Shown here piece after piece: positions 19,916-50,700 of a stretch of DNA of 64,000 nt. Position numbers and translations under genes: made by a program. The notes under the pieces are model-generated. The model was not told the origin of the DNA. It worked only from the letters and a program-made list of their open reading frames with translations, and searched no databases. Within the stretch, counting starts at the first letter, position 1. Each line of letters begins with the position of its first letter. The stretch comes from Botryllus schlosseri (Eukaryota), in contig CM119372.1 of the NCBI GenBank assembly GCA_051294905.1, positions 1,612,001 to 1,676,000 on the forward strand, in the 5' to 3' direction.

Positions 19916-22900
19916 ATGCGGGAGCTTGTAACTAAAGTGCTTTTCTTATACGGATTTTTCGCGGTAGCTTTCGTAGGAGCCACAGCTACCGAAGAAGATG
20001 ATGCGTCCACAAACGCTACAGTACTCGACACTAAAGAACTGCTAAAGGTACCGTTTGAGGAGGAAGCTATGGAGCGCGAGCGGAAAAACGGTCCGTTCGC
20101 GAGAAGCTCAAGTCCCCAAGAATGCGACGCAGTAGCGCCCGAACGCAGGGAGGTGTGTGACGTAACGCCGCACCAAGAGTACGCGGATATCATTCTGAAC
20201 AATTCGACATTCTGTCGGTACATGGATTGCTGCTTCGATTACACCTCTACTTTCCCGATCGAGACCGGTTATCCGCGGTGCTACAGAAAAGGTGGGATTG
20301 GGTAATGGGTCGGCTTCAGACCACGGCGAACCATTCGCTAGTAGCTCGGTGTAATAGACAACAACATCTGTCGAGATTCCTAGGGTCGCGATAATTTAGA
20401 TTTCGCGAATTCAGCAACTAATGAGCAGGGCACAAGTTCGACCGTCTCAGTGATTCGATTCTAAATTGAGTGTTACGTTTTGAGTCGGGTAAAGTATTCA
20501 TTCGAGTGTCATTCATTTCGACTTCGCAACAGTATGAAAGATGTGGAAAGTTCGAATGTGCACCCTCTATGTGACCGCAAAGAATAGTGCCAGTTCTGCA
20601 TCACATTGAAGATTATTTGGTAGCTTTGACCACACCAATTCCATTGCTTTCTGTTACAATGATGTGGGTTCACAGATATGTCGCCTCCACCAAGTTACAT
20701 AACTTCCCACTACATGATGTCGATGCTACGATGTGAGCAATCACAGTTGTTTGCAGCCTTCCACAGTGGGAAATAGTATCGAAACCAGCATAATACTCGT
20801 GAAATGAACTCTCAATGGCGTGGGCGTATAAGTATGTACTCGGAAAATCGTCTCTCACAGTTCGAATCGAAGCATCAGAATCAATACTCGATTCAGATTC
20901 GAGTGCTGGAATAGTAATATTATCAACCATAATATAATATCGATACTTCCTTTCTTCCTGAATAAATCCTAGTTAATCCGAGTTTACCGGATCACGACCT
21001 GACATATCGATCCCGCCTTCTGACAACATGCCATCGTTTTTGACACCTGTCCTTTTATATTATCTTCTTTTACTTTTCATTCAGTGTGCATGCCTCCTCT
21101 TTACATCGCCTAGGCCGACGTGGGAGTCTGATGTCGAAGACTACTCAAGGTCTTTTCGACACCTTCCTATCTTTCATTGTATCGCAGTCTTGTGATGTAT
21201 TGAAATGATGAAAATTTTGGCAATAAATTGAATTGAATTGATTTCCGCGTATTTGATTTTAACCAGTCAGTCGGTCATTTATTGATATAGATTCGAATAT
21301 ACCACAAAATTGCAATTTTATGAAAAGTTTTGAAGTTTCGATATGACTTGGAGTATTTTTCTAAATAAGATACCCATGCAGGTCCGACAAAGGATCGATG
21401 CGTCAGATTTTATCATCTCGTGGGAATATTCAGTTACAATCGCAAGTGAAATTTTTTGTGCTATGTTACTGTGTTAAACGCACCACGTGCCAGCGTATAC
21501 TGTGAATCCGGACGAATTACTATTTTCAATATCATATCAATTCCTGGTAAAATTTTCGATATCTATTTTCAGCGCTACCAAATCCTCAGGTAGCAGCGTT
21601 GCTGCAGAGAGCTCGCCAGTGCTCGGCTGTCCCAGTGGTATCCCGAAAAAGCTGTGGCTGGTACCGGGAAATAACAGAAGGCGAGTGCATCTACCGAGAC
21701 TGTTGCTGGGATCCTGCTGCGTACGGCACGACTCTACAATGCTATAAATTACCGAATCAGGTGCGTGTGTGTGCGTGTGCGAGACTCAGACTGTTTCGAT
21801 ATGTCATAATGAGAGTACAGATTACCGGCATTTACTTCAATTAATCTGAATAAAGAACTACAATTATCTAGTTGTCAAAGTTTCATTTAGGCTACGCATA
21901 TTCAATGACAAGTCAAAACATTTGAAATAAAATTTAGGTCGACACAAAAGTTTAATAAATAATATTTCCATCTGTATCGCTTCGAAGGATACTATGCCAA
22001 CACCTGTCAAGGACGACGCTTATCCGAAACCAGCTTACGGCATTTCAGAGGGAAACGCGTTGGAACAAGAACGCCAAGGTACTACTTGTGCAATTTAGGA
22101 CTAGACAGGGTCATCGAAATATGTTGTGTACATTCAAATCAATTTTCAGTGTCCTACATAACTGCTCAGTGTCAGGAAATCGACTTATATTCACCCTGCG
22201 GAACAGCCGATGTACCACTGCAGGAGTGTCAATCATTGGTAAGAGCCTTAATTGTCATCTAATTCACATCATTCTGTATAGGCTACATATTGTTTGCTGT
22301 GATGATTATGGTCTCACGTAATGGGAACATAGGGTTTATTACCGCCATATAATTCTGAGTTAGGTTCTGTTTCGTACGCCACCGTTTGGGTGTGAATACA
22401 GTCCAGTTATCTGTAAAAACTGCGTATACGGTGTAGCATTCCTACGCTCAGTTATTTCCGATAATGACCGTGCCGATTGTCTCCTAGGTAATAATAGCTT
22501 CACTAAACAATCAACGAATTATGTACCCACCATTGCAGAGCGATATTAATATTCTATAGCTGTACCGTACGATTTGAACACGACTTACATTTCGAGATGA
22601 TGATAATTCTACCTACAACAGTGGCAGTGTTGTTAACAGCAGGCTGCTGTTTCATTCAGTAAATTGACAACTGATAGCCTATAACGCGTTTTCGGATTAT
22701 GGTGCAACAGATAACGCCGCTTGATTGAAAACTCGGGACACCTTGACTACCCATCGCGCGTAACCTTTCCAACTTTATGCGTCGCGATTAACAGTATTTA
22801 ATCACACGAATAGCATTCTTCCGGATCAGCCAGCTTTATTATCCCCACCAAAAATGCGCCCCGATTGGTAGTTTAATCACATGATTTGCATTCTCCCAAA

Positions 22901-25900
22901 TCAACTGACTTTATGATCTCCGCCCTAAATTGAACCTACATGTGATTATACTCGTAAACAGTAATTGGCTCAAGTCTAGGCTTTCCCACCCGACCTAGAA
23001 CGACCTGATTTCTGGTGTGTATCCACTACACAGTACGTATCAGTCTCCTTGCTCCGTGTTACACACTTGCAGACAATAATATTAACCAATACGGCCGTGT
23101 GATTGGGCTGTGAGTAGGGTTGCTTTTAAAACAAACGGTGTTTTAAAACACTTTGATTAAAACATGGTTTTTAAACAGAGTTTTAAACAAAGGCCTTTTT
23201 GAACAAAACAAAATTGTGTTTTCTTTAAGCTGTAAAATTATGCCGTAATTGTTTAAATACATTCCAAAAAGCATAATGTACGAGCCTACAGACAATAATC
23301 ACCCGATATAACCGACGTATTTCGATATGGGATGGTTTAACCCTCAAAATAGTCGGTTCAACATTAATACTACAAATATTTCGTCAAAGGAGCTATATTC
23401 ACCCTATCTTTTCAATTGTCAATGTCGTTCCATTATTACGTCACAATTGAATATTCGTGGCGTCATGCCTAAAAATCATGTTTTAAATTAGGCCTTGTTT
23501 TAAACATCTTTGTTTTAAATGCAACCCTAGCTGTGAGTGCCAGTGGATCACCCTATTCTGAAATGAATCACAATCACGTACTAATAATTCGTACTTTACT
23601 ACCAGGGTTGCTGTTGGGTCGAGTCAAATTCCTACAACGTCAAGTGTTTCAAATCGTCACCGATCGCTAGCGGGTAAGAATAGTTTGATCCGACTTAGAT
23701 AACTAAATACTTATTGTCTAATTAGAGCGACATGTCGTTAATATAATTCAAACATAATTTGTGAAATGTGAAATTCTAAGCTCTCATCTTAATTCTAGTA
23801 TAATTAAGGTTTTTCTGGGAATGCTATGCTTGAGAAATAGCCCGAATCGATCCTGTCTTGACGGACATTTGCCTCTCTCGTGCTTACGAGAATGTTCTCC
23901 GATTTCATACCAACTGAATTTGATTCTTGTTGCATTTCCTTCTGATTCTGAATTCAATTCGTCCTAAGTTTTTTAGCGAATTAAGTTATTCATATCTAAT
24001 TTGAAAAAAAAACTGTGTAGCTATAGTTCTAAATCTAATCAAATTTGGAAATGCTTAAAAGACTTCAGTCGTGCAACTTTGTTGTAAATAGACTGATCAC
24101 TGTTCTATATTTATTACGCTTGACACTTCCCGATCAATATGCTCAATCTTTCCGCAGGAATCGGGTTTCTACGGGCTCTGAACCAATTGCGGAGACTGTT
24201 GAGATTGCTCCAGTCCCTACTAAAGTGTACGATCGATTGCCAAACCCGCAACACAAAAGACCCGTGAGTGTGAAGCCTTCTCTATTTCTCGAAAACAATA
24301 TTTGAGTTTCGACATGAAATAGGCATACATGTATGGCATACGCCACACGGGGCGTGTCGCCCACCGTAGATGGGATGATTTTACATTGACTTGTTTTTAA
24401 CATTTCTATTGCATTTCCAGGTTGAGTCCCAAACCAGAGAAGTAAAGCCGGTGAGTCATGAACAAACAGTATACATTACCGTTTTCTAGAGACTGTTGAG
24501 ATTGCTCCAGTCCCTACTAAAGTGTACGATCGATTGCCAAACCCGCAACACAAAAGACCCGTGAGTGTGAAGCCTTCTCTATTTCTCGAAAACAATATTT
24601 GAGTTTCGACATGAAATAGGCATACATGTATGGCATACGCCACACGGGGCGTGTCGCCCACCGTAGATGGGATGATTTTACATTGACTTGTTTTTAACAT
24701 TTCTATTGCATTTCCAGGTTGAGTCCCAAACCAGAGAAGTAAAGCCGGTGAGTCATGAACAAACAGTATACATTACCGTTTTCTAAACAGTCTAATTTTC
24801 CATGAGCAACAAGCAAACGCTCAATCCAAGTGAATTAATTCTGCAGCCGCACTGAAACAATGTATAAAACTTTATGAATATTTTCCCTTTCAGAAGTCAG
24901 GAATCCAGAATAAAACGCCTGATTTATCGGCGCTTACCCAGATGATGATATTTTGCGGAAAAAAGGATAAGACTCTCTGCACAATGTCAATGATGAGCAT
25001 TCTAGGTGGAGGCAATGTATGTATATTTAGTTAACTCGCGTCGATAAGGAGAGACCTTTGTCACAGTCATTTGCTGGAAGTTGTGAAGTTGTATGACATA
25101 AATTGAGTATATTAACGGCTTTCCCGACACTTCCACATGCGAAACCTGAGCATCTGACTTTATAACCGCACAATTAACGCTAACGATGACCGCATCTCAT
25201 CCCGAACCCAAACTTTAATCTAAAAATTCCAACCCTAAATTTAACCCAAATGCTTAAGTGTTACATGCTTATATATCCAGAGACTACTTTCATTCTTGTC
25301 TTTCGCTGTTAGATGAAGCCATCCACCGAAGCACCAAGCGCCCAGGAATACATGAATTATGTTCTCCGTAGAAAATCGTTCGGCGAAAGTTCATCAGGTA
25401 TCCTTTTTCAAACGTACACTTTCTATGACAATACGTGATATATGGAATGGCCTGCGAAATGCATAGATGCGAGAAAGTGAGACATAAGAATTAAAGTAGC
25501 CTGCATACATTATTTTTACAGAATATCCTTCGAAACCAACATAATAAGTACCTACATCCATGCTCGCAAATTTCTTTACTCTTAGCTTGTCAACTGATTC
25601 TCATCGGGAACGACCGTCAGTAAACACGGAGATTGCAATTCGAAATTTGCGCAATTCGAATATTGTATAAGAAGTAGATCGATGATAGATACAAGATTAT
25701 GACTTATTGCAAACTATGTGTCAAGATGATAATAACGAGACACAACCAAATTATATCTATTGCTATATAATGCAGAAATACCGATGCAGCCGAAGATACC
25801 GGGAGAGATGTATATCCAGTATTCGCCAATAGGAGATGCATACCTGGGTGAGGCTAAAATAGCCGATTTATGAAATATTATACAATATAATTAAAAACAC

Positions 25901-28900
25901 ACTGCGAAAAGGGTAAGTATTTACACCCCTGTATCATCCGTGATATACGGGTGTGAATATACACCCATGGCACACGAAACCAGATCAAATCAGACTTATG
26001 CCGCGGTATAAATCGAGTACAACATTTTAATCTAAACGATGCATGTACGAATGTACGAAGGGTGGTATGCACGCATGCAAGCGGGATTTATGACCGCGAT
26101 ATAATTCTGAGTTAGGTTCTGTTTTTGCGTACCACCCTTTTCGGTGTGAATACACTCTCTTTCCGCCAAGAGTGTACGCCTGTGCGGGCAAATTTCAATC
26201 GACTTTCATTAAAATGCTACAAACTATCAAAAACCCATCGAATGTAGCCTGATTTAACGATAACGATAATGACTTAACCTTCAGACGAACAATGTTACAA
26301 CACAACGCAGTTGAAGATGTACGCTCGCTTCCATGCACCTTGTGGGGGATTCCTCAAGTCGAAGAAAATCACAAACGAACAAGAATGCATCAACGAGAAG
26401 TGCTGCTGGTTCGATGACTATCATTCGAGTTCGTTTTCGTACAAATAATCACCCAATCTCGCAATTAAAAGCGTTATTTCGTTCTATGTTGTGTCCGACA
26501 GTTCTGCGCAAAGCTCTGAAATTGGATAACCAGAAACCCAGCATGCTAAATCACGTTTACCCGATGCTTGGAATCAATATCGCCGGTGGAGCGAATTGCA
26601 TCGAGGCTTTGTCATATCGTCAAATCTCGAAAAGTAAGAAATTTAAACCCGAATATTTTGGGCAGGGTTGTAGTGACTCGAGTCATGACTCGACTCGACT
26701 CGAGTCGCGATTTTTTGGTGACTCTACTTGACTCGAGACATTTCTTCAAATGCGTAATATGACTCGACTCGACTCGAGTCAATTTACGTGTTGACTCGAC
26801 TTAGCATGACCCGAACCAAGTCATATGAGTCGTGACCAGGACGGCCAAGACAGTTATTTCATTGTAACTTCGAAGAATAGTAAAGTTACCACATTACAGT
26901 GGTATTTCTTCTATCGGTCCTGATACTTGGAAAATAGGACCAGAAACTGATAAGACTAAGGAAAATTTTTATATTATGAATGCGAGCCATTCTTTATCAC
27001 TCGAGCAGAGTTGAAAGAGTGGGTTGAATCGGTTTGAATTGAAAACTGAGCAGTGAACAGAATGACTTGGACTCCGGTCAAAACACCATGGCTTGGACTC
27101 GACCTTCTACTGGCTGACTTGGACTCGGACTTAACTTGGCGGTGAATTGAAAATGACCAGACTTGACTTGAGTCAAAACTACAAAAGTGAGATTGACTTG
27201 TGACTCGGAACCTTGTGACTTGGTTACATCCCTTATTTTAGGCCGCCAGGGGCAATCGTCAGGAACTAGTAAAGAATGGAAAAGAACATTGTATATCAAC
27301 AATCGTATCATCAAATATGACGCCATCTGCTTGAAAATTCGAGTGATTAAGGCGAACACATGGCTCAAGCTAGATGTACATTTTTAGATAATGCACGGAT
27401 TATGCTGTACAATCTTGATTAAGCATGGGTATTAGAAATCCTTTGAGTTGTAACAAGCATATATCCATACGTGGTCTAAGTTGTCATCGTTGGTAATCAA
27501 GTAGAAGCAGAAGGAAATTTCCACTATAAGAGTACATGTAGAGATAACAATTTCCAAGATACGTCAGTAATAGGCCTACTTCAGGTTGAAGTCAGAAAGT
27601 CAGAAAAGTACTCAAATAAAAAGTTTCAAAGAGTAAATTTGATCGACAATTAGAATATGGCATAACGGATCTATTCCATTACATCGATATGAAATATCTT
27701 GGCAACTTTAGCAAACGATTTCCGTTTCAGTTGGACAAATGTCTGCACTCAATTCGTATCGCGAAGACGCGGAACATTCCTCTTCGAGTTCGCCTCAGAT
27801 GCTCAATCTCTTCCTGGATCAGGACGACCCAGTCTCGACGCTGATGTCGTCAATGATGTTGCTGTCGGATGGCTCCCTGTCGCAAATGAGTAAGTTCGTA
27901 TATAATAGGGTTGCTACTGATAGGTGCATATGTGTTGCAAAGATGGACAACTAACAAATTCTCAGCTTTTTTGTAGTTGATTGGAATTAGAATCATATAT
28001 AACCCGATTTTACCAAATTAGAATAAAACCTGAATACATAATCCAATATTAGCAATGATACTATTAATAAATATTCCAATTTTTTAGAATAGAACTTGAA
28101 CGTGTACAAATCTACATCACGCTGATTCAATAATATTTTGGTACGATTGTAGCCTAGCTTACTGCTCTTAAAAAGGAGTGCATGCTGCACCCCAGCGAAC
28201 ACCAAAATATGCTTGCGGTGCACCAGTACGCAAGAATACACGTAGTACCCTAGCGCAGAATACGTATAAACACTAAGTGGTTACTAGTTCATTGGCCCTG
28301 GCAGCCAGGTACCAGTGATGACCTTTTTATTGGCTTCATCCCAATAAGGTTGAAGAGCGCTGACCTATCCTGTATAGCCTTGCTGTTTCAAGGGGCTACG
28401 TCCTTCAGATTGTAACCTCCAGAGTTGAATAGCAGAGCTGCTATTTGTTTTCTCCATTCCAATCGCCACTAAACTTCTGAATTGATTCAGGTCGCCCGAT
28501 GCTGTATAGTATGGCTCAATCAGAGGATGATTCCCGGGTCATTCTCCCCATGGTTTTCAACAAAATCCAAGAGGACAGCACGACGGCATCGTCTGCATCT
28601 CCAGCGGTATCGTCAAGATCCAGTTTAATGGGTCAGTGAGAGAAACGGGAAGACAGAGCTCTGTTCAGTGGCCACTGGTCATACATAATATTGCAGTATA
28701 TATATTTATATTTTACAATACTGTAACCAAATCACGAGGTTTCGAGTCACAAGTCATTCTTACTTTTATATTGTTGACTCGAGTCAAGTCCGCGTCCGAG
28801 GCGGGAATCATAGTGTTTAGACTCGAATTCGTAATCAAGTGATCGTATTTCGCTGTTCAGTTTCGAGTTCAAGACAAGTTCAATCCACTTTTTACGACTC

Positions 28901-31900
28901 TGCTTAGGTGTTATCTAACGCTTCAAATTCACAATATAGTACATGTCTTCACTTTTAACGATCTCAACCCTATTTTTCCAGTCCCAATACTGATACAGGA
29001 AATACGAATACTGAATAACCGGGTCTCGAGTCATATGACTTGGTATAGTCATGCGCAATGTCATGGTCAAATTGACTCAAGTCGACTCGATTCATTCTCC
29101 GTAATTAAAATCACGATTCGAGTCAAGTCGAGTCGCCAGAAAATCACGACTTGAGTTATTACAACCCTGTGTTTATGATGCTTCAGGTATTATGCCGGCG
29201 CTTCTGATGTTAGGAGCGAAAAATAATGATGACGAGGGTGATACGAAAAATGACTTTCTTCCTTTGATCATGGCCGCCATGTCCTCAAACGGTAACGTCG
29301 GGGCGAATGCAGGTATACGATTGGCAATCTACAGATGTAGGTCTATATTAAATACGGCCCAGAAGCTTAGAATTTAAAGCACCGATTTTCATTTACCTAG
29401 CTCTAGCTAATTTCCATCCATGTATTTTTAGACTTTGGAGTACGTCAGCTGGATAGCACCCAATAATCTTATTTCACCTCTTAGGCGGTATCGACCCACT
29501 TTATTTGGCAATGCTGAGTTCTGATGGTGGGTTGAGCGATCCTCTTCTACAAATGGCAATTCTTTCCATGAGAAACCGACCGCTCGTACCGTACGGAAAC
29601 GGGAGCCAAGCTCACAATCAACAAACGTGGGGCTCAGAGGAGCCCAACTATCAAAGCGCCGGACAATCCTCGGCAGAACAGCCACAGCAAAATCAAATGA
29701 GCGGACTCATTAGTAAGTGAATACTGTTATTGGGTTTATTTCAATATGAAAATATTTTGATTGTATATTGGATTTTTAAACGGAGAGAGAAGAGTGTTTT
29801 CATTTTTGCGTTCGAAGTGTTTCAAATCGATGTTACCGATAGTAAAATGTGAGATTACAGGCTTAATCAGTTCCATGTCGGAATGACTTGATATCTTTCA
29901 TTCTAACTACACCTCAGTTTATCCTACAAACTCAACATAATTACAAATAATTGTGCTACTCGAGTGGGAGTGGGAGTAAATCAATTAACTTCTTTTCAAT
30001 TACAAATAGATATCTCGATTCCAACACGTGCTCAGAATTCTTAGACGGGAAATCGCGAACAAAAGGCTTGAAAAGTACTCAAGTATAAGTGTAGTTTCAT
30101 AAACTATATTTAGTTACTTTGTAAATTTCAAGATTTAAAGATTCAAAATTTCTAATCAAAGTCACCAGAAATGGGTAGGTCTACATGCTTCGAAAATATA
30201 TTCAGTTACTGTGACACAGCGGCTATTTCACGCGGTTCCTATGACATTTTCGCTCATAGATATGGTGCAAAGTTAACTCAAAACTACTTTCTACTTTTCA
30301 AGATCCAAAGTGTCAAGTTGTTTTGGCTGTTCAAGCAACAGTAGAAGTACTTAAAAACAAACCCCTTCAGTAAGTAGTGAAAACAAGCAAACTATACTCC
30401 AGCTCCCCGAGAAAGTAGAAGCGCGTCGCTACCAATAACATTTCGGAATAATCCATAATAAGAATATCGATTCGGCGCAACATGACCATTGATGTCGACA
30501 CAGCACGAATATACGAAACAAAACCAAAAACTTTTCACTGTTTTACAGCCGCCCTGATGATGTCAAAATTCATGGGAGACGATTCCGACAGCGGGTCCTC
30601 GTTAAAAGACTTACTCCCCATCCTCCTGTCTCAATCCCAGGCATCCGGCGGTCAGATGTCTCCAGACCTCGCATACATGATACCCGCCCTTCTCTCTGGC
30701 GACAGCGACAATTCTAACAACGCCATGATGATGCAGATGCTGGCCAGTTCCGATATGAGCAGAAACCCTCAATTGATGACATTGCTTCTCTCAAACTCAG
30801 AAGGAGAATCGGATGAATCATCTATGATGCCTATGTTGATGTACGCGCTTTCGCAACAAGACCAAGCTTCGCAAGGTGGTAAAACAGACATGATGTCATG
30901 GATGCTTCCTATGCTACTCAATCGAAAGTCTTCTGAGAACAGCACCGACTCGCTTGAGCAATTACTACCAATAATTATGTCGATGCAAACTTCAAACTCC
31001 GATTCTCAATCACTTGCAATGCCCTTGCTGCTGAACAACCCATCTATGCTGTCTGATAACCCCAGCCTTTTAGCATCACTTTTTAGTAACCCCACCGCGC
31101 CAGAACAATCACCGTCTTCATCTGGATTGCCAGTTTCAGCCATGATGTCTCTTATGTCCGGAAAACCTTTGGATCCGTTCGCTTTACTTTCAATGACGGC
31201 TAGTAATACGCAAAGACCTAATGCGTTCGGACAGGGGCCGGGTTTATACCCGTCTGCAAACAATGGAAATCGTAATATATTCGGAAATTCTCCGCAAACG
31301 AACATTCCTCGTGAAATCAGAACGAATAACTTGGTAATGAATCCCGCAGTCCAATCTGTGCTCGGATCCGAAGGTAACTCGATGGATAAGCTGCTCATCA
31401 AGCTCTTGATGAAGTCTCAACAAGGAGGATCCGATTCTACAAACTCTATCTTTGGTCAGACCCAACAATCTCAATTCATGAATCAGCCGCAAAACCCGTC
31501 CGCTAACCCACAGTTCAACCCGCCGACGAATCCGTTTCAACCATCATCGTACAATTCACTTTCGGGACAAAGCCAACAGTCTCCGTTCCCCAATATGCCT
31601 GTAAACATGCCGGGTTTCTTTCCGAATACGAACAGGCCTTCGATTAATCCGAACGCGTTCCCGAACTTCGGACAAGTTTCGAACGATGTGACGACAGGAA
31701 TTCTCGTAGCGCCGCACGATAACGAACATTCTTACAACAAGGTGAGTGGTACTAAAATTGTGTGGGCCTATAACTGCCTACGATAAGATAGTATATGGTC
31801 GACGCAGAGGTGGTCAAAGTATATACTTTGCTATTGACCTCCACCGGTAACGACCTACAAGTCTACCCATTGCTGTTCTTGTATCGAGGGATGAAACTTT

Positions 31901-32855
31901 CGACAGACCGCAATACGTTCACAATCAGTGTGCTTCGGTGACTAATTGCTAAACGATTCCAATCATCTATACTTCCATGCAATCACTTTTAAATTGCGCC
32001 TTCTAGCTGTTACATAATTGGCAAATTTAATCATTGCCAACGTCCACACCAGTATAGCACTCGCCATATCATGCGTGTGAGCGGAGTCTTATGAAGGCCT
32101 TGAAGTGGGCCGTGGTTTAAGCCGGCAGCTACGGAATAAGAATGAAGAAAATTGGCCTGGTGTTAATGACCATAGTAGTCGACAGACACCATGAATACCA
32201 CAAATAACAACAGCCAGTATAGCAAATGGACTCCTCGAATTTGCTCATCGGTATACTATAACAAATTCATCCGTTATAGCAGTACGCTCTGATCTTATTA
32301 ATATGTGTTACACCATAATATTGTCAGTAAATAGGCATTTCTTAACCTGTACAAACCCGGAGAACCCCAAATTTCCCGCCTTGTCGCAAAGCAATAATCT
32401 ACCATACTACACATCAAATACATTACTTTGTGCACACAGTGAACTGCGCCGTGTGCACCAACAACAGTGATAAAAGAGCAAAACCATAAAACACGATTTT
32501 CACATGAAGAAAAAAGACGATGATGAATGTTCATTGTCCATTGCAAATCAGTGTGACTTCTGTTGTATGAGTTCGGGTGAGTCTTGACCTCCAGCGAACT
32601 CATGAGGCTACCTCATCAAACCCATGTTGAGAATCACCGCATTAAACATAGATAAGCGTTAAGCAATAATTCTGTACGTTTGAAACAAATTTCCAGGACG
32701 AACCAGATTGCATGATTCCGCCCGGAGCCGAGGAAGAATGTCAGCTAGACGATGTTCAAAGCCCGTTGATAACCGAACATTTGTGCAAAGAAAGAAAGTG
32801 CTGCTGGAACCCCGCCTCAACAATCGCATGCTACAAATCCGCTAGTCAATCTTGA
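19916..32855 (+). CDS. Secreted multi-trefoil (5 P-type domains) protein with Met/Ser/Leu/Pro-rich low-complexity region, ~1169 aa
   Basis: Signal peptide MRELVTKVLFLYGFFAVAFVGATA. Exons: 19916-20291, 21573-21760, 21988-22078, 22150-22238, 23606-23673, 24158-24263, 24421-24450 (identical copy at 24718-24747), 24894-25016, 25313-25397, 25776-25847, 26285-26428, 26502-26633, 27731-27889, 28491-28631, 29187-29312, 29485-29712, 30549-31741, 32697-32855. Sum 3510 nt, all phases compatible. Five C-C-C-CC(W/F)-C modules, e.g. CSAVPVVSRKSCGWYREITEGECIYRDCCWDPAAYGTTLQCY and C-terminal CMIPPGAEEECQLDDVQSPLITEHLCKERKCCWNPASTIACY. Confidence 0.85.
20990..21242 (+). repeat. 3' end of a LINE/SINE (AATAAA plus (TTGAA)n tail)
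   Basis: The same tail sequence (GTGCATGCCTC...GGTGGGTGTCTGA...TCGACACCTTCCTATCTTT...ATCGCAGTCTTGTG) recurs at ~17430-17617, ~44440-44600, ~50390-50520 (-) and ~53085-53220. Confidence 0.65.
23115..23529. mobile_element. hAT-type MITE family B
   Basis: Same TIRs as 346-787, in opposite orientation; perfect TSD gctgtgag. Confidence 0.9.
24192..24785 (+). repeat. Perfect 297-bp tandem duplication
   Basis: 24192-24488 is identical to 24489-24785. Confidence 0.95.
26663..27234. mobile_element. hAT-type MITE (GACTC repeats)
   Basis: CAGGGTTGTAGTGACTCG...GGTTACATCCCTT; TSD attttggg/attttagg. An inverted copy lies at ~28716-29169. Confidence 0.75.
28716..29169. mobile_element. Inverted copy of the 26663 MITE
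   Basis: Ends TTACAACCCTG; internal reverse-complement similarity to 26663-27234. Confidence 0.7.
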
Positions 32856-35639: not shown

Positions 35640-38600
35640 TCAGGCAGGCATTACGTATCGTCCCAGGAAAAGGATGGATTTAGTATCCTTATGCACGATG
35701 TAGAACATGAACGGGTGGTTGCAAATGAAGGTCTGGTCCAGGCTTAAACTTCTGGTCATCGCTCCGATCGTTACGGCCGCGGCTTCAGTGCCTTCTTCGT
35801 TCACATCGATGAAAGCCTTGTGCAGGATGGTCGATATGAACATGCCTTTCGTATCTGTAAGGTATAATATTTTAGTGCATGTTGCATTTTCGGAGATACA
35901 TTCATGAATTCAGTTATGTAATAATTCCACTCCTCGACACGCCGCACAGTGTACAGTGCGATACACAAGACACGATGCGATATTATGAACAGAAAGGAGG
36001 ACGTCGAAACGAAGATAAAGCGTCCACTACAATACAAGTAAAACTACCAAAATACAGACACAAGCTGCGCCAAGATTTTCAAAAGTTTCTGTGTGGGGCA
36101 CACGTAGAAATCGGTGACTATGTTGTCATTATGTCATTATTTGTATTTGAGAGCTATGATGAATTACCGATCACAATGTTTTTCTTTTAATAAAATCAAC
36201 TTCTTTCGATAGAATTGGTGTCAATCCATTTCAAATATACGACAATTGCTCTTGATTCAGGGCGAATATAAAGATCAAGACATGTTAATAAGCATATTTC
36301 TCGTTAATGCATATTGAGCAATAATTCACCGGTACAGTTAAATGATAGAATTTCCCATCTTAAATACTATTTTTCGTCGAATTACAAATTTTATATTCCA
36401 ATAACTTCGCTTCTACTGGTCGGAATTGAACCAAATTTGTTATGTTTCGTTATTGTAGGTGAACCAACAATTTAATGGTGTTGCCACTAAAATTTAATAT
36501 CAGGTTATTTTGAACAACCCTACCGTCCACCGTTATAACATCCACCTCTATCCACGGCCAACTATACATAACGATGCATGTATAGTAGATTTTAAAAAAA
36601 AAACTAATATGCAGTTGCACTGACATGTCTTTAGTAAACTACATGACTTAAATTATTTTGTCTTTGAATTACGGCATCTGCGATGGAAATCATACTTCGC
36701 CATCGGACCCGCGTAAACTGTGTCTCACTATTAGCTTGCAACAAATGTGAGCAGTGCAATAGGATTCAGCCCATCAGGAATTACTATAAAGAACATCGGC
36801 CTGGTGTAAAATGGCAGATGCAGTCAAACCACCATTAATACCAAATCAACAACATACCAGTGAAATCAATACGATCACATTAACGCGAGTGTTATCGAGA
36901 ATGGTAGTTTGCGATATCTGCAGCATAGCAAAATACATTGCGTCTTATTTTGCAATGGCGTTTTGAGTTTCGATACGTCAGCTACCGCAGCGCCGTCGGC
37001 ATTTTGAATGTAAAGCTTATTACATTCGTGATGAGTCATCATGCCCAAACCAGAGCATATGCGCGAGGAATTTATCTACGATACCCTGTTTTTATCATAT
37101 ATATAAGCACGCTAAATCCAAACAGCTGTGACCTTTCGTTGGGAATTAATTCATATCATGATATTATGCCTCGCTATAGATTTTCACGGAAATCAAAAGT
37201 CGTATTCAACATGGTACGGAATAAATCTTGAGCAAGATACGGTGTGATTGATATGATACTTTGGTTGTTAGCCGTGAATAGACTATTTTAGGTACATAAT
37301 TTCCATATACACTTGAATACTATATTGATATTGAAATAAACCCGAATATTTTCGGCTGACACTCGTCAGGGGTAATCGTCAGTAGCTAGTAGAGAATCCG
37401 AAGGAACATTGTAAACAATCGTATCACCAATTAAGATGTTACATTCATGACGTGACGAGGTTACCTGAGGTGAATGTACTCAATTTATTTTTACCCAATG
37501 TATCATCTAAAAATAGTACTGCAGTATGGGCTACGTCACATATTTCATTATTTCGACACGGCTATAGAGATGGTCAGTAACTAATTACTTTTGCAGGGTA
37601 CTCAAGTAGGTATTCGCTATTTACATTACTTACTCGAGTGCTAATATTTGACCCTACTCCCGCTACTACTTGGATAGGTTTTGTTAGTAGTTTGGGATAA
37701 ATTTGCATAACATAGGAGTGAAATTGTCGTAAAGACCACAACGATGTCTACCGTGACCACATCTGGCTATAACTGATTAGACGTCGAAGACGTCAGATAG
37801 GCAAGGAGATTAGTGGAGATTAGATCAATTAGATCCGATAGGCATTTATAGTTTTGCGTAGAGGTAATTGAGTTCTCGCAAAATAGCGAATCCTGATCGA
37901 ATATGCCTACGAAAAGTGGTTTGCAAATATACAGATCCAAATATATATAATAACGTTATATGTGTACCTTATATTGGGCTGCATATTGTGTACCCTATAT
38001 TGGGCTGCATATTGAATAGTACAAGAAACCATAACCTCATGTCGTTAACTTCTAGATAACCGATGTAATAAGGTGAATGCAGTACGGAATGTATTTTAAC
38101 TACTTTGTTTAAAGAGCTTCCTGAACGTACATAACTTCAATTAACAATCGAATAGTATATTCATATTGAAATGAACCTGAATATTTTCAGCTGACACTGG
38201 CCAGGAATAATCGTCAGCAACTAGTAGAGAATTGGCGAAAATATTGTATATCAACAATCGTATCGCGTCAGCCAAAAATATTCGGGTTCATTTTAATGTG
38301 AATATACTGTTCAATTGCATTTAGTTTGTGTGTCTATGTCAATTTATGTTAATTTAAATCAGCAGTGTGGAGTTAAAATGCCTTGTAATTCTGAGGTTTT
38401 GTACCATAAACGGGCTCGTTTAATAACGAATATCGGGTATGTCGTTATTCACATACAGTGTTCTACGGTAGTGGATTGTAAAGTCATTTTCTTAGCATCA
38501 ATTACGCCCCTACAATCATTGAAAGTTCAGCCTCAATAGGCTCGAATTTCAAGCGTGTGTCCGAGTCAGCAATCGGTAAGAAGGACGATTACGGTCGATT

Positions 38601-41154
38601 ACGACCATGATGAAGGCACGTCGATAAACATATCTCATTACGGACGCTCTGTTCGTGATATTGAACACGTGAATTCGCCTTACGACTTCAGAAATGCTTC
38701 TTGGGCATACAGAACGTCAATATACAATTCAGTAGTATATTTATATTGAAATAAACCGGAATATTTTCGGGTGACGTTGGAAATATATCACCCGCCTGTC
38801 ATATGCTCATTTGCTTAAAATTGGAATAGTAGATTCTACATTTCGTAGTTATTGCGGATATACACCGTAATCGTGGATCATTGTATTGCTTAGTGCAAGA
38901 CACACTTCTAGCGGAAAGAGTGTGTATCGTGTACCACCTCTTATAGACGGGTGTGAATAAACAACCACGGCACAGAAAACCAGAACCTTCCTCAGACTCA
39001 TACCGCGAGTACCACACTTTTCGTTTGCCACTCATGTCGGCCCTTTGGGTGTGAATTCACACTGGGTTCTCTAAGAATGCATAATTTTCATAGTAAATTT
39101 CTCATCGATAAATGTGTCCAATCAAAATAGATTTTTTTGCATTACCGATTCGCTCTCTCACTCTCACAAAGTCGCATAAATCCATATTGAATCTGTATGG
39201 CCGAGTAACCTGCATTGGTGACCGATATCCTATTGCATCGTTTTGTCATTACATCTCATTTCGTGGTAGCAAATCTTTTAGTTAAATAGACAACAACAAT
39301 GCACATTTGGACTATTTAGTCCAATCTCGTATAATTAGAGCGTAATACCAGTAAACATCTATTTTAATCTAATTTGCGAAATGCTTTCACGGTCTTATTT
39401 TCATTCTATTCTATAGTTTCTTGATTTCCTGAAAATGCCACAGTAGCACTGTATAGAGGGGAACGGGTCAAGTTTGGTGTACCCCCGTTTACCATTCTCG
39501 TGCTTATGATATGAGATGAAATTGATTTCTGTCGCATGTCGTTCGAGTTTGGAATATAATTCAATTTCCAACTTTTTACAAATTCAGCAATGAATTCGAA
39601 TCTAAATTGGAACAAAAGTGGTTAGGTGTAACTTTGATTAGGGTTGCATTTAAAACAAACGGTGTTTTAAAACACTTTGTTTAAAACATGTTTGAAACGG
39701 TGTTTTTAAACAAAAGCCTTTTAAAAAAATGTGTTTTTTTAGGTTGTAAAATTATGCCATAATTGTGTAAATACTTTTCAAAACATTTGTTGTATGAGCC
39801 TACGGACAATTACCACCGATATAGCCGACGTATATCGATATGGAATGGCTGGTACCCTCATAATATTGTCGGTTCGACAGCAATAGTACAGATACTTCGT
39901 CAAATAAGCAATATTTACCCTATATGTTCAATAGTCAATGTCAATCCACTATGACGTCATAATTTAATATTGGTGTCGTCATGGCTTTAAAAAAAATTAA
40001 AAACATGTTTTAAACAAGGGCCTTGTTTTAAACACGTTCGTTTCAAATTGATTTTTGTATTAAATGCATACTTAACTGCAATTCTAATCTAATTTTTAAA
40101 CGCTAAAACTTATGCAGTTCTTCAACAACAACAACAACAACAACAACTAGAGAAACAACCCACCTGTCATTGGGGTGAAATCGCCTCCTCCGAACAGCGA
40201 CCTCGCTCCCAGATTCTTGTAAGTGTCCGTCATCTCTTTCGTGAATTCGATCTTGAATTTGGGAATAGACACCACCACTGTTTGCATCTTCCCGTACTGA
40301 TTCAGAGCGTGCAGCACGTTGTCTGCCAGCGAGTTCTCCATATGCACCAACCCGTCTCTTTTCTTGGGTAACAGGATGATCATATAAGCCGCGTCTCCGT
40401 TGTAAGGCAGCTCTATTAAACTGAACACATCGTTACTCGCGTATTTATACATTCCCTTGTTGTTCATGAAGGTTGATTTTACTGGTGTGTTTCCATCTAC
40501 GAAGAAATCAGCCTGCATAGTGCGTCTAGGGTCGAATTGTTGTTTCCAAGAGTCTTTAAAGTAAATAGCGTTCGCCAAAACTACCTCAGTCATAGGACTT
40601 ATGCTGTTGGGCGGCAGAACATCCTTCAGTATTCCGTTTGTCTTCTGTTCAATCCATTTATTGATGATCATTCTCGAGCGTTCCGTATCGGACTTGTAGT
40701 TTAAAGTCTGTACAGTGCTGCCGTAGTACATTTCCGCCATTCTGGTGTAGTTATCCCGCATAACGAATTTAGAATCTGGAAAGATCCTGTCCGCTACTAC
40801 GAAAGAAACGTCGCGCGACTGCTTTTCTATGTACTCCCGCACCCTGCGATGCGACTCGTGGATTTCACGCACGTCCGGGTTGCAAGCGCCGTATTGTAGG
40901 AATGTCCGCAGCTCGCGTTCCGTGTGGCCGTCAGTACCGAGCATCAGCATAGCAGTAAATGAGGAGATACTGTACGGCGAAAAGATGATGTTCTGAGCCC
41001 CTTCCGCCACGAATTCTCTGTACAAAGTCATGGATAATCTATACCCAGACTTGATGACTGAGCAGTATTCTCGCCTGCGATCCTTTCCGGATGCATCCCG
41101 CGATAATGCAAGTAGCAGTAGCACAGCAAATAAAACACTTTTCTTGACCATCAT
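35640..41154 (-). CDS. Secreted serpin (serine protease inhibitor), 401 aa, two coding exons
   Basis: Exon 1 is 41154-40164 (signal peptide MMVKKSVLFAVLLLLALS, NIIFSPYSI, INKWIEQKTNG, NAIYFKDSW, IPKFKIE) with a phase-1 GT donor. Exon 2 is 35854-35640 (HKAFIDVNEEGTEAAAVTIGAMTRSL...FICNHPFMFYIVHKDTKSILFLGRYVMPA*). Total 1206 nt. The hinge motif is of inhibitory type. Confidence 0.95.
39639..40074. mobile_element. hAT-type MITE family B, degenerate right end
   Basis: Colinear with 23115-23529. Confidence 0.75.
40123..40147. repeat. (CAA)n microsatellite
   Basis: About 8 CAA units, starting 16 nt into the serpin intron. Confidence 0.9.
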
Positions 41155-44100
41155 GTCAGTTTTTTGCAATAAAACACGTATAGTCTGGCTTGTTTCAGCG
41201 AGTTATGAGGCGTGAAAGTCGTTCAGTCTATTAATATAACCCAAGGGCGGCGATGAAGCGCCTTGGGCGTTTTAATAACGGTTTCGAACACATCAAAGGG
41301 AATTGGACTGTGTAATTGAATGCGTCATATCCTGACGAAATATCGGTATAAATAGGTCACATAATAACTACTGGGGACGGTCCGGACCAAACATGGGACA
41401 ATAGTTATTTGTATTCGTATCGATGATGTCGATTACAGCATTTTGAAGTATTCGTAATGTATAACTCTCTACAAGGACAATTACTAAACTTTTCTACTTT
41501 ATGGGGACTTGAAGATACTTTTGTGGGTACAGAGCATCAGCATACAACTGATATTCCACGTCATATTTCGTGATACGATATGTCATATACAATTTTCTTT
41601 TCAATTCTCCACCAGTTGCTGACGATTACCTCTAACGAGAGTCAGCTGAAATTATTCGGGTGCATTTCAATATGAATATATTATTCAAATTTATGAGTAT
41701 TATTGACATTGACATAAACTCAGTTTTACAGGGACTACGGCGTATGCTGAACAGGGGACAGATGCATGGTATTGACAGTACAATTATCGGATTTATGAAC
41801 CTCATTGTTCATTATTACATATCCAAAATTAGCGATCCTCAAATTATATACTATTAAAATCAAATATCGAATTGCTACAACACAGCGATTGGTGATATAA
41901 GCACTAAATCGAAAGGGAGCTGTTTTTCGTGGTACTCGTAGTGGCTGCCAGAAATATCCGTGTTGTGTGGATTGCGTGTTGTGTGTTACGTTACGAGAAG
42001 CAATCATCGTTGTGGCACAATTTCGTGTTCAATTTGACTTATTATCCGATGGTGCTACTTGAACGAACTACAACGGTAATTGGTCAAATCGCCGGGGAGT
42101 GTTGTGCGGTGGATATATTTTGAAGCAATAAGAAAATGGCGGCACGTATGTTTACAATTCTGTTCTATTGTGCCGCAGCGTCATATCAACCAAAACAGCA
42201 AAATAAATGTGATTGTCAATAATCGTGATGCGTATTCCGTGTAATCGTAATCCTCCATTTCTGGAATAGATCGCGTGTTAATATTTCATATCTAAAGCCT
42301 TATACACAAATTAAAATCATCGTGCTTGGTCAGTTGGTCACTCCACTAACACCGTTGCACGATCGTTACCTACATTCAAAAGTTTTTTTTTCAAATATAG
42401 AAGCGACTGTGGGTGGTGAACTATGTACAAGGCTTCGTAAACAATAACACAAGATGCAGCTATGTAGAGACATGCACGATTCCAGTTTTTGAGATATCTG
42501 CATTGAATTATCTCTCCATATCATAGTTGGAAATTTTCCATTCAGTAACACGCTATGCCCCGGCTATACTGACGACGAATACGAATATATTATAGTAGTA
42601 ATTATCGATACACACATATTACGTGAATGAGCGATATAAAATTACCCATGATGGTGCAATGTGCCATGAACCATCCCGATGTTAATTTTGATCAACGTCA
42701 ATAACATAAATTATAATGGTGAAGAATATATAAACCGTTGTATATGATGTGTATTTTTGTCTGGAATTCTGACCCTTGATAAAAATCACGAAATGTTGGG
42801 TCAGTATATCGCACGATACGCGAGCAAGAATTTTTCAAGTTTGAAATCTGTGACATAAAATACTGTCTGGGACGGGGGTACTTTTGAGACAATTATGACT
42901 TGTCGGTTCAATATCAAGTAGAAAATATTTGCCACAAACGACTCTATTTTATATTAATTTGTCAAATAAGTCTGAATACCCTTCGATCTTCGACCCTCGA
43001 ATGGAGCGTTAGGAGTGCTGCAGCTGCGGCTCCACGCCAACTGTCAGCTCGGCGAAGTTGATTTTGGCTCAGATAGAGTCATATCGCAGTCTAGTGCAGC
43101 GAAACTTTAAAACATTCGATAATGTACAAAATAATATAAGATATATCATTGCTGTCGTTTGCAAAGTCTATTACGAATACTGCGTTATCTGACTTGATGA
43201 AATTAGTTTAAACCGCCTGGGGCCATGGAATTCCTACCGTAGTCATGATTGAATGCATGAATGTCGTGAAATTAGCCTTAATGTCCAGCAGAAGCACTTG
43301 ACTCATTCACAATGCAAATATTTGGTAGTTTCATTTCCGCGCACGATGAAAAGTCCATTGCACGAAAAAATGGCCCAAGTGCATTCTGATAAATGAATTT
43401 TAATGGGCATCAACTGCATTGGACAGTATCATGGATAGGAGCGGTTACTCCGATCCGAATCCTAAAGTTGATTTAGACTCCGATCCCTAAATCCCCGATA
43501 AGGGATGAGTAATGCTTCATGCAAATGATTAGTATATTCATGTCGAAATAAACCCGAATATTTTTGGTTGACACTCGTCAGGGGTAATCGTCAACCAATG
43601 GTAGAAAACTGAAAAGAACATTTTATATCAACAGTCGTAGCGCCAAATATGACGCCTCGGAGTCGACTTTTATCAAAATCCTCCAACCTAACGTTTGTGC
43701 CAACAGATGGAGTTCGTGTGTAATGTAAAGATAATACATTCTGCTTAATTTCAATACAAATATACTATTCGAAAGTATATTGAGGTTCTGTACCTCCACG
43801 ATTCTATCCAAGTCATGAGTATTGTATGTAAATTACAAAGCGAATATGATTGCTATTTCCGCTGAAACAAAATGAAATGTCTACATCGTGACAGCTAAAC
43901 ACGAAACTCGTTCATCACGCATGAATTCCACCCGAAAACTTGGTAAGATCTTCCTTTAGGCCACAGGCGCGCTCAACAAAAACCCCGAATTCGGTTCGCC
44001 TTTGGTCGTGCTATATTAAAACCACAGCTCTTGCTCCGATTTGGGTCCAGTCAAAATCTCTAACATCCGGCCAAGCTCCACTCTGGCTCCGATCTATGCT

Positions 44101-47700: not shown

Positions 47701-50700
47701 CGACAAACTAGCCCAAATAAAGCGTTTTTGTGACTAATTCGAGGCTGAAACTATCTATTTAGAGGACGATGCCAAAACTGCCAAAAATAAAAATCGAAAA
47801 ATGCCAAAAATAAGTTATTTTTGGCAGTTTTGGCATATGCCAAAAATAACACGGCCTGGATATAACTCATTAATGTGCGGTGAGGAATATAGATCGTATG
47901 TGTCGTCAAATCTACGATTTCCAGAATAATGGATCCTAAACGTTACAGCAATAAATATCGTGCATATGCCCGACCACTAGTCAACGACTTCACAGCTCAA
48001 ACGAATATTACCATACCTTGGACAACAGAGTATCTCTTCTTCGAGTAAGTAACTCCCTCCACGACATTAGTACCGTGACACTCGTAAACTCCGTAATCGG
48101 CTTTAGTGACGCCGTTCAACACCAAGGTCGATTGGCCGGAGGCTTTGATTTGATTCGGAACTTCAGCCCCTTTCAAGAACCAAGTGACATCCGGGGCCGG
48201 CGATCCGGACGCCGAGCAATCGATTTCGAAATGGGAAGCCTCCTCTACGACAGGGTCGTCCGCGGCAACGTGGATATCGTGAGGCTCAACTAAATAACGG
48301 TTTAATGTTTAGACAGGAGAACAAGAGTAAGCGAGTAGCAGAGTGGGAAGTATGAGTAGGGAATTGACTAATATATTGATATGAAATAAACCCGCATATT
48401 TTCGGCTGACACTCGTCAGGGGTAATCGTCAGCAACTATAGTAGAGAATTGAACAGAACATTGCGCATTACACATTGCACATTACTTTAATAAAGTATTG
48501 ATTCTTTTGTGGTAACTATGACAGTCGCCAACGTTAGGGAGCACAGCGTTGTACTGGCGTAAGGTTGTAAAAACGTGGTTGCTAAACTGTGTGGCATTTT
48601 TGTCTCAATATTGCATTCTTGTGGCCCGCGGCCTCTACGAAATTTGAAAAGTGGCCCGCGACCCTTTTTGACGATCACTGTCCTGAACACTGACATTTGC
48701 GGTGAATTATCAGTGGCTACACCTCCTGTCCAGCTAATCAGAGGTTTTGGGTTCGACTCCCGCTATCTGTATCTCAAAAACGTGACCGCTGGCGTGTAAA
48801 GTGCCTGCCGGTCCCAGGCCTGGGTATACTACAGTCAAGTCATTCTGCGGATCGCTATAGACACTGCACTTCAAATCCATGGATGGAAATATGTGTAGTT
48901 ATCAGATTTCCACCATAGCGCCGGGTTTAAATGAGTCAAATACACCAATCCTCACGGAGATATATCCCGGAGGTGTAGCAGGTTCTGTGTGCACCCCCTA
49001 TTTGGGATTTGTTGGGATGGTACACGCAAACAACTACACTTCTTGGATATATCTCCATAAGAATTGGTGTATTTGACTCATTTTCAACCTTTGATTTACA
49101 CTCCAATACGGTTGGAAGTACATCAGAGGAATACACCTATTTGCATTTACAGTATAAGCTATCACCCGCAACGCGTTGTCCCCCCAATTCATTGTTGGCT
49201 CTTAGCTGCAGGACGCAACTGCCACACCAAAAAATCGCTAAGAATGTGGAGTGCATGTGTATAGGCTTAGATGCGTTCCAGGATTTCACGCGAACCAACA
49301 ACAGCAACTAGCGAACAGCGCTAACACTAACCTCCCTCACAAACGTAAGAAAGTCTTTGATCACATTTCTCTGTTGCCGTTCCATCGACTGAAACAGTAT
49401 AGCAAAAGTCGTCGCCTCTGTCTTCATCTTCAACCCAGTACCTTTGTGTCCTAGAAATAACGAAGGCATGGAGAATCCGTTAACATGTACGGGAGATGTG
49501 ATACCGATGGATCAAAAATTGCAAAATGCTCTCTGGCCGATAAATGTCCGACGTCCGTCCAAGAACAACAGATCGTTTGCCTCAACACTTTGATCCAAGC
49601 TCTACCTACTGCGGATATATACATGTTTATTCGCCTTTTCCAAAAATGCTTGTGAACGTTTAGAATTACACTGAAGAATGGTGTTGAATTAAGAAAATAT
49701 GGGACTTGTGATCATGGGATTATCATAGAAAACTTTTTTCAAGTCTTTTGGGTCCCAGCGCTTCATGGGTTCCACAGCTCTTCTATGCAAGCTCTGATAG
49801 CTCGCTACACAAGTTTTCCAAATTGGATTAGAATCAGAATGACTTAATTCGAAAAAGCTTGGAAATTTAATTTAATTCCAAATTAGAAATAAATACAACA
49901 AAAATCAAGGTCAGCTCATATCAAATCAGAGTTCATTCTCAGATCTGGCTTGTTTCTGACGTTCTCAGGGGATTTTTCAGGGGAATTGAGGGCATAGAAA
50001 TCATTGACAAATTAGATTAGTACTAGATTACCGGCATTTCGTTCTAATAAGTCTAATAAGACAACTAGAGTTATTATCACAAATTTTAAACTGCTCCAGC
50101 TCCGGCTCCGGAGCTCTCTTTTATGATAAATTAGCTCCGGCCCCAAGCTCCGGAGCTGATTGATACCGCTGCTCCGGCTCCGTAAACTATCGAATGGTTC
50201 AGTCATGCAGTCAATAACTACACCGTTGCGCCAGGGGCCATCGCGCCGAACCGTTATTTTGTGTGGGTATGCACGGTTCTGACTGTAATCTTAAAATCGT
50301 GGGATCATCATCATCATTGGTTTATCAGCAATTTTTATCAGTTCAATGCGCCACAAAAATGCGATACAATGAAAAGACAGGGAAATGTTGAAGCGACTTG
50401 GAGTATAGTCTATGGAATCAGACACCCACCTTGGCCTAGGCGATGTAAAGAGGAGGCATGCACATGCACACTGAATAGAAGTAGAGAAGATAGCATAGGG
50501 GGGAAAAGCGACAAGAAATAGGGCGGCATGTCATGGGAAGCGAGATCGATAGGTCAGTCGTGGTCCGGTAATCTTGAGGATGGACTGTATTTATTGTTCA
50601 AGTGTAACTGCAACATAAGCGCATATCGCGACCAGAAATTAACTTGCTACCAAAGACCGAATGGGTTGAAATTCGATATTGATGCGCTCGTTACCAGTCC

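Follow-up and report, generated by a model that had tools for sequence, protein, structure and literature searches.

We examined a 64,000-nucleotide window of Botryllus schlosseri DNA (GenBank assembly GCA_051294905.1, contig CM119372.1, positions 1,612,001 to 1,676,000) and found that its plus strand holds, at window positions 19916 to 32855, the gene model for a large protein in which three trefoil modules, a linker, a fourth trefoil and a Cys-free core of short hydrophobic blocks are followed by a C-terminal trefoil. This order bears out the original prediction for the locus, which had described five trefoils with a low-complexity part ahead of the last one. The analysis shows the exon structure of the gene, its module order and a block-spacer pattern in the core, together with the conservation of these features in Styela clava; the protein is real, conserved and present in databases without annotation. 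Our preferred reading, to which we assign a probability of roughly 0.47, is that it is a secreted, self-associating extracellular matrix protein of ascidians, plausibly of the tunic or cuticle. Judged by its sequence, it is a variant among multi-trefoil secreted proteins and is neither a mucin nor a TFF-type lectin.

The model comprises 18 coding exons from an ATG at 19916 to a TGA at 32855 (19916-20291, 21573-21760, 21988-22078, 22150-22238, 23606-23673, 24158-24263, 24421-24450, 24894-25016, 25313-25397, 25776-25847, 26285-26428, 26502-26633, 27731-27889, 28491-28631, 29187-29312, 29485-29712, 30549-31741 and 32697-32855). Each of the 17 introns has GT-AG ends, and translation gives 1169 aa with a mass of 128 kDa, a pI of 4.8 and no internal stops. 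When compared with the Styela clava protein XP_039266765, 12 of the 18 exons scored above all 200 shuffles; exons 3, 6, 7, 10, 13 and 16 failed to top every shuffle and were placed by splice signals, frame and their position in the global alignment. A scan of the introns for missed exons against the same protein returned nothing above shuffle level. The weakest splice site is the donor of exon 11, where read-through would reach a TAA at 26446-26448 after nine codons. This weak donor, and the lack of any read that joins the 5' and 3' halves, would fit two adjacent genes, one for a four-trefoil protein ending at 26448 and the other lying downstream of it. However, the Styela protein stays in frame with similar sequence over the exon 11/12 point and carries Cys VI of trefoil 4 in its exon-12 equivalent, a residue that the short stop form would lack, and hydropathy indicates no signal peptide on the downstream half. 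Because this colinear protein runs through the weak donor, it supports, to the extent that a record that is itself a database gene model can, the view that the locus is one gene, the exon 11/12 junction included, which leaves the two-gene arrangement very improbable.

Homologues of the protein were few. Exon 17, searched without an index against 1.84 billion representatives, matched three proteins, of which two are single-exon open reading frames (P0001, 45% identical, and P0002, 33% identical) and the third is XP_039266765. By blastp, residues 69-1165 of the model aligned with residues 103-1255 of the Styela protein at an E of 4e-141, with 376 of 1101 aligned positions identical (34%). Word-index searches, which are weak, yielded no homologue among 4624 candidates for exon 17 or 181 candidates for exon 1, and a search with Styela residues 165-570 recovered only the query itself among 2416 candidates; the latter search was insensitive, as the Botryllus protein shares 7 of 402 five-residue words with the query, of which 100 were sampled. 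Two of two ESM Atlas queries gave no usable match, and metagenome scans gave 117 pattern matches, none of which was confirmed. XP_039266765 was not found in the accessible portions of the supplements of PMC11988888, PMC12992692 and PMC9953650, two of which may use other gene identifiers. A literature search with most subscription journals outside its coverage found no description of such an architecture. The original prediction had recognised no named protein with this architecture. The only full-length match is the uncharacterized Styela protein, and the prediction had overlooked Ciona Epi-1, a characterised tunicate protein with a signal peptide, trefoils and a role in the cuticle.

The N-terminus contains a predicted signal peptide (aa 1 to ~25; 19916..19990), as had been proposed; the prediction is one of hydropathy, with a peak over aa 2-26 that is the sole 19-residue peak above 1.5 in the protein, and the Styela protein likewise peaks only there. 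We conclude that the protein very probably enters the secretory pathway. Five modules with the pattern C..C..C..CC..C, in which Cys IV and V are adjacent, occupy aa 70-122, 142-182, 226-262, 413-490 and 1122-1162; in P-type trefoil domains the six Cys pair as I-V, II-IV and III-VI. Pfam Trefoil (PF00088) recognized only two of these five above its curated cut-off, so that the domain check proposed with the original prediction succeeded for module 2 (21620..21745; E 3.1e-10), the most canonical, whose best PDB match is TFF3 (6v1c, E 5e-4), and for module 5 (32709..32834; E 2e-6), while the remainder stand by their Cys pattern. Module 1 (20123..20284), which has a long loop 2 and a match in Styela, fell below the cut-off with an E of 0.013. 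Module 3 (22170..23650) spans exons 4 and 5 and was scanned as two half-exons, of which the first gave no match and the second an E of 0.031; module 4 (26293..26602; exons 11 and 12) was scanned without exon 12 and gave an E of 0.1. The whole Styela protein matched Pfam Trefoil with an E of 3.5e-29. In module 4, a 39-residue insertion shifts Cys VI into the next exon, and both the insertion and the displaced Cys are also present in Styela. Module 4 is the best-conserved stretch of the protein (exon 11 is 60% identical to Styela), which suggests a specific function.

We also asked how these modules compare with trefoil factors. The accessible part of PMC7221086 describes TFF3 as binding GlcNAc-alpha-1,4-Gal through Asp20 and Trp47, which are conserved in TFF1-3. 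At the corresponding positions, which were taken from an alignment to TFF3, the residues before Cys II and Cys VI are V/R, S/Q, P/K, P/N and E/A in modules 1-5. The Asp/Asn plus Trp pair is thus complete in none of the five Botryllus modules and in none of the six Styela modules, the fourth of which was taken from the pairwise alignment. Because the pair is absent, mucin cross-linking of the trefoil-factor type is unlikely, and cross-linking of mucus glycans, which the original prediction had cited as a role of trefoils, is unsupported in this form. In TFF1-3 a single class 1-1 exon encodes the domain (PMC7350206). The Botryllus modules, checked against exon phases, depart from this rule: modules 3 and 4 are split by introns, the module 2 exon has phase 1-0, and modules 1 and 5 are encoded by terminal exons.

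Between trefoils 3 and 4, the linker (exons 6-10; 24158..25847) consists of a Pro-rich stretch, a Met-rich segment with two Cys and a Tyr-rich segment. The Met-rich segment (exon 8, 24894-25016) has its Cys pair eight residues apart and is 41% identical to Styela; the Tyr-rich segment (exon 9, 25313-25397) ends in a dibasic RR (aa 376-377) and is 36% identical. From these residues, an intra- or inter-chain disulfide is possible for the Cys pair, and processing is possible at the RR. A structural model of the Styela linker and module 4 was of low confidence (pLDDT 42).

The 615 residues between trefoils 4 and 5 (aa 503-1117) are Cys-free and contain 16.7% Ser, 11.2% Leu, 8.9% Asn, 8.3% Met, 8.3% Pro, 7.6% Gln and 3.4% Thr, with a net charge of -26. 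They divide into a Leu/Met/Ser block core (aa 503-940; 27731..31210), in which polar, net-acidic spacers separate short hydrophobic blocks, and an Asn/Pro/Gln/Phe-rich tract (aa 941-1117; 31211..31741) that ends in a conserved HDxEHS motif; both this tract and the nine hydrophobic motifs quoted in the original prediction, all in exons 15-17, were confirmed. There are about 20 blocks of 7-14 residues each, compared with 24 in Styela, and their median spacing in four sequences is 22, 20, 20 and 23 residues (20 in Styela). In the four sequences, hydropathy blockiness exceeded that of 1000, 1000, 983 and again 1000 out of 1000 shuffles, with P0001 the weakest (17 of 1000 shuffles reached its value). 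A motif of two hydrophobic residues, Pro and two hydrophobic residues, a pattern set after the sequences had been inspected, occurs eight times, compared with a mean of 0.46 and a maximum of 4 over 1000 shuffles, and ten times in the Styela protein, compared with a shuffle mean of 0.57. In three of three pairwise comparisons, blocks were more identical than spacers (58 vs 41, 40 vs 30 and 37 vs 28%). The predicted sticker-spacer layout is therefore conserved in Styela and, for exon 17, in the two further records.

The core had been called a methionine-rich repeat, a label that needs qualification on both counts. No tandem repeat was found in the coding DNA of the core, and the repeat is therefore a degenerate motif. 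Met is abundant (6-10% in bulk in all four core sequences), but Leu exceeds it. In alignments, Leu is conserved at 74 of 119 positions, while Met is kept at 30 of 77 and replaced by Leu at 23, so Met acts as an interchangeable hydrophobe. Given the surplus of Leu and the free exchange between the two residues, the suggested redox sensitivity is unsupported as control at specific Met positions, although the bulk Met content is maintained. The core also differs from a mucin Pro/Thr/Ser region, as had been predicted, given its low Thr and the lack of tandem repeats. Enrichment of Fam20C-like S-x-E sites was not significant in any of the four core sequences. Blocks contain almost no aromatic or Cys residues. 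We rejected a membrane protein, given that the highest 19-residue hydropathy in the core is 1.22 and no block is long enough to cross a membrane; reading the blocks as amphipathic helices was unconvincing (moment 0.27 vs 0.22 in shuffled sequences). AlphaFold2, run on exon 17 with a four-sequence alignment, placed isolated short helices on the blocks at a pLDDT of 40 with no confident fold, which is weakly compatible with disorder.

Expression was assessed with four of 24 listed read runs (X1, X3, X11 and X15). Pieces from X1 pass through introns and look like DNA. Five listed pieces of run X3, which we guess to be RNA, fall within exons 16-18, including coverage of trefoil 5; the depth of this run is 4-5 on exon 17, and it shows nothing on exon 1, exons 6-9 or exon 13. 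Two of these pieces stop no more than two bases from a predicted splice site, leaving 84 and 46 letters over, and the residual depth in the exon-18 bin equals 45.6 bases of the second piece, which fits a joint between exons 17 and 18, although that joint is absent among those printed. Runs X11 and X15, which are raw RNA of unspecified tissue and were read to about 6% and 13%, respectively, show depth on intronic repeats only and none on exon 17. Confirmation from RNA reads thus extends to exons 16-18 in X3, which is probably RNA, while X11 and X15 contributed no exon reads. In exon 18, six of the seven listed allelic substitutions are synonymous. From the X3 pieces and these substitutions, we conclude that transcription of the 3' part, at a low or restricted level, is probable and that this part is under coding constraint.

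How might such a protein act? We propose that its blocks, which have neither the length for a membrane span nor much amphipathic character, make weak, multivalent contacts with one another, and that the polar, net-acidic spacers keep the chain swollen. Release into seawater could then give a gel or dense protein phase, to which the disulfide-stabilised trefoils at both ends would add partner binding through a site other than one for GlcNAc-alpha-1,4-Gal. A tunic location is plausible by analogy to Ciona Epi-1, a tunicate-specific protein of 80.8 kDa with a signal peptide, P-type trefoils and no membrane span that is expressed in the epidermis from the tailbud stage; its knock-out gives a fragile, sticky cuticle, and its authors infer that the cuticle has a hydrophobic component with tight packing (bioRxiv 10.1101/2024.09.30.615758). 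In the same report, the protein part of the tunic persists after loss of cellulose synthase. Several observations weigh against this reading. A bulk structural protein is expected to be abundant where it is made, but exon 17 is empty in X11 and X15 and only four or five deep in X3. The low-confidence four-sequence model and faint sub-threshold Pfam matches to helical-repeat families are compatible with a folded helical domain, and blocks that stay colinear position by position over 34% divergence fit ordered packing equally well as a liquid-like phase. A bolder version, which we regard as doubtful, is that the protein founds a new ascidian family of secreted block copolymers in which the Leu/Met blocks self-assemble as a hydrophobic, cellulose-independent cuticle phase and non-lectin trefoil caps, one with a conserved helical insertion, tie it to partners; that phase, in this same version, would be the cuticle component inferred, though not named, in the Epi-1 study.

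We weighed this matrix reading against other roles. A lengthened stolidobranch counterpart of Epi-1 would work inside epidermal cells, where it would condition cuticle proteins and the layout of cellulose fibres without itself being matrix. Epi-1 is reported to be cytosolic, has a trefoil in exon 12 and ends in a Pro/Phe/Gly-rich peptide whose last 19 residues are Cys-free (bioRxiv 10.1101/2024.09.30.615758). The Botryllus protein shares with it a signal peptide (here from hydropathy only), trefoils, the lack of a membrane span and a restriction to tunicates (three matches, one of them named); trefoil 4 crosses exons 11-12, and aa 941-1117 loosely resemble the Epi-1 end. In addition, the word-index miss of Epi-1 is uninformative, given that only 7 of 402 five-residue words were shared in the comparison above, with 100 sampled. 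However, the proteins of 128 kDa (Botryllus) and 135 kDa (Styela) both end in a trefoil, the only named match to exon 17 came from Styela, and the text of the Epi-1 report describes no Met/Leu-rich region and contains no occurrence of "methionine" (bioRxiv 10.1101/2024.09.30.615758). A published Epi-1 primer gave no matches in the metagenome scan, and PMC10986139 makes no mention of Epi1 or trefoil. We consider a counterpart of Epi-1 somewhat unlikely.

A precursor cut at the RR would release a three-trefoil piece and a core piece, which some restricted cell type or stage, such as egg coat, test cells or larval adhesive, could hold in granules, with the blocks serving in packing. The RR lies at an equal place in Botryllus and Styela after the conserved Tyr-rich segment, expression looks restricted, and trefoils are known in zona pellucida proteins (PMC7350206), but the RR is one among several dibasic pairs, and this role is improbable. 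Equally, we think it unlikely that the protein is a mucin-like component of a feeding net or surface mucus, in which trefoils would cross-link glycans and Ser-rich spacers would be O-glycosylated. Its layout resembles that of frog integumentary mucins, its core is rich in Ser and Pro, and the Ser content leaves O-glycosylation possible. In contrast, the core has low Thr, with at most six in any 40-residue stretch, and no tandem repeat, and the lectin pair is missing from every module of both species.

If the matrix reading is correct, the protein would offer a handle on the assembly of the tunic cuticle and, for protein materials that work under water, a new design. Little is known about the protein fraction of the tunic, and this protein is a conserved candidate with an unusual aliphatic/Met block design. 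Should it instead be the orthologue of Epi-1, its block core would suggest how a knock-out phenotype that so far lacks a mechanism comes about; if neither holds, it simply joins the lineage-specific secreted proteins that databases already contain.

Other features of the window were also recorded. Exons 10-16 (25776-29712) are seven in a row of phase 1-1, so that skipping or duplicating any of them would keep the frame and could vary the length of the core. A perfect 297-nt tandem duplication (24192-24488 and 24489-24785) takes in exon 7 together with the last part of exon 6, and one copy is used in the model; it is either a very recent event or an assembly artefact, with no read coverage there, and an AG at its junction could splice in a second in-frame copy of ~33 residues. 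Introns 12 and 14 contain a high-copy repeat resembling a miniature inverted-repeat transposable element, with GACTC-rich inverted arms (26660-27230 and 28720-29170) and very high depth in all four read runs. The minus strand holds, by Pfam, two serpin coding stretches (35643-35909, E 2.7e-22, and 40150-41202, an uninterrupted 351-codon frame, E 7.1e-72), an immunoglobulin-domain exon (48000-48308) and a C-type lectin exon (57121-57450). A long tandem repeat at 57815-58912 has strong GC skew and an open plus-strand frame that would give a repeat rich in Thr and Arg.

The closest known system is the Styela clava protein (LOC120342136, annotated "uncharacterized protein", 1256 aa), which has the same order of parts throughout, including the inserted trefoil 4, the two-Cys linker segment, the RR, the block core and the C-terminal trefoil; it differs in an extra N-terminal trefoil, for six in total, and in a core with more Gly and less Ser. 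Mammalian TFF1-3 (PDB 6v1c and 6v1d) have the same six-Cys pattern as the Botryllus modules but are small peptides with the glycan-binding pair that these modules lack. For oikosins, a candidate that we rejected, the comparison was by text only, and the main text of PMC3390340, on the house proteome, nowhere contains "trefoil". Frog integumentary mucins are thought to assemble via several trefoil modules, as stated in the accessible part of PMC7350206. FIM-A.1 and FIM-C.1, both frog mucins, likewise have a signal peptide and several trefoils around a low-complexity region, but the Botryllus core consists of hydrophobic blocks with 3.4% Thr and no Thr/Pro/Ser tandem repeat, and most of the Botryllus trefoils are not encoded by single class 1-1 exons. 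The low-complexity part of trefoil-bearing mucins is a Thr-rich glycosylated repeat. Epi-1, which reportedly had three trefoils in its 1998 description, could be compared by description only; it resembles the Botryllus protein in its general parts and is unlike it in size and in its Cys-free end, where the Botryllus protein has a trefoil.

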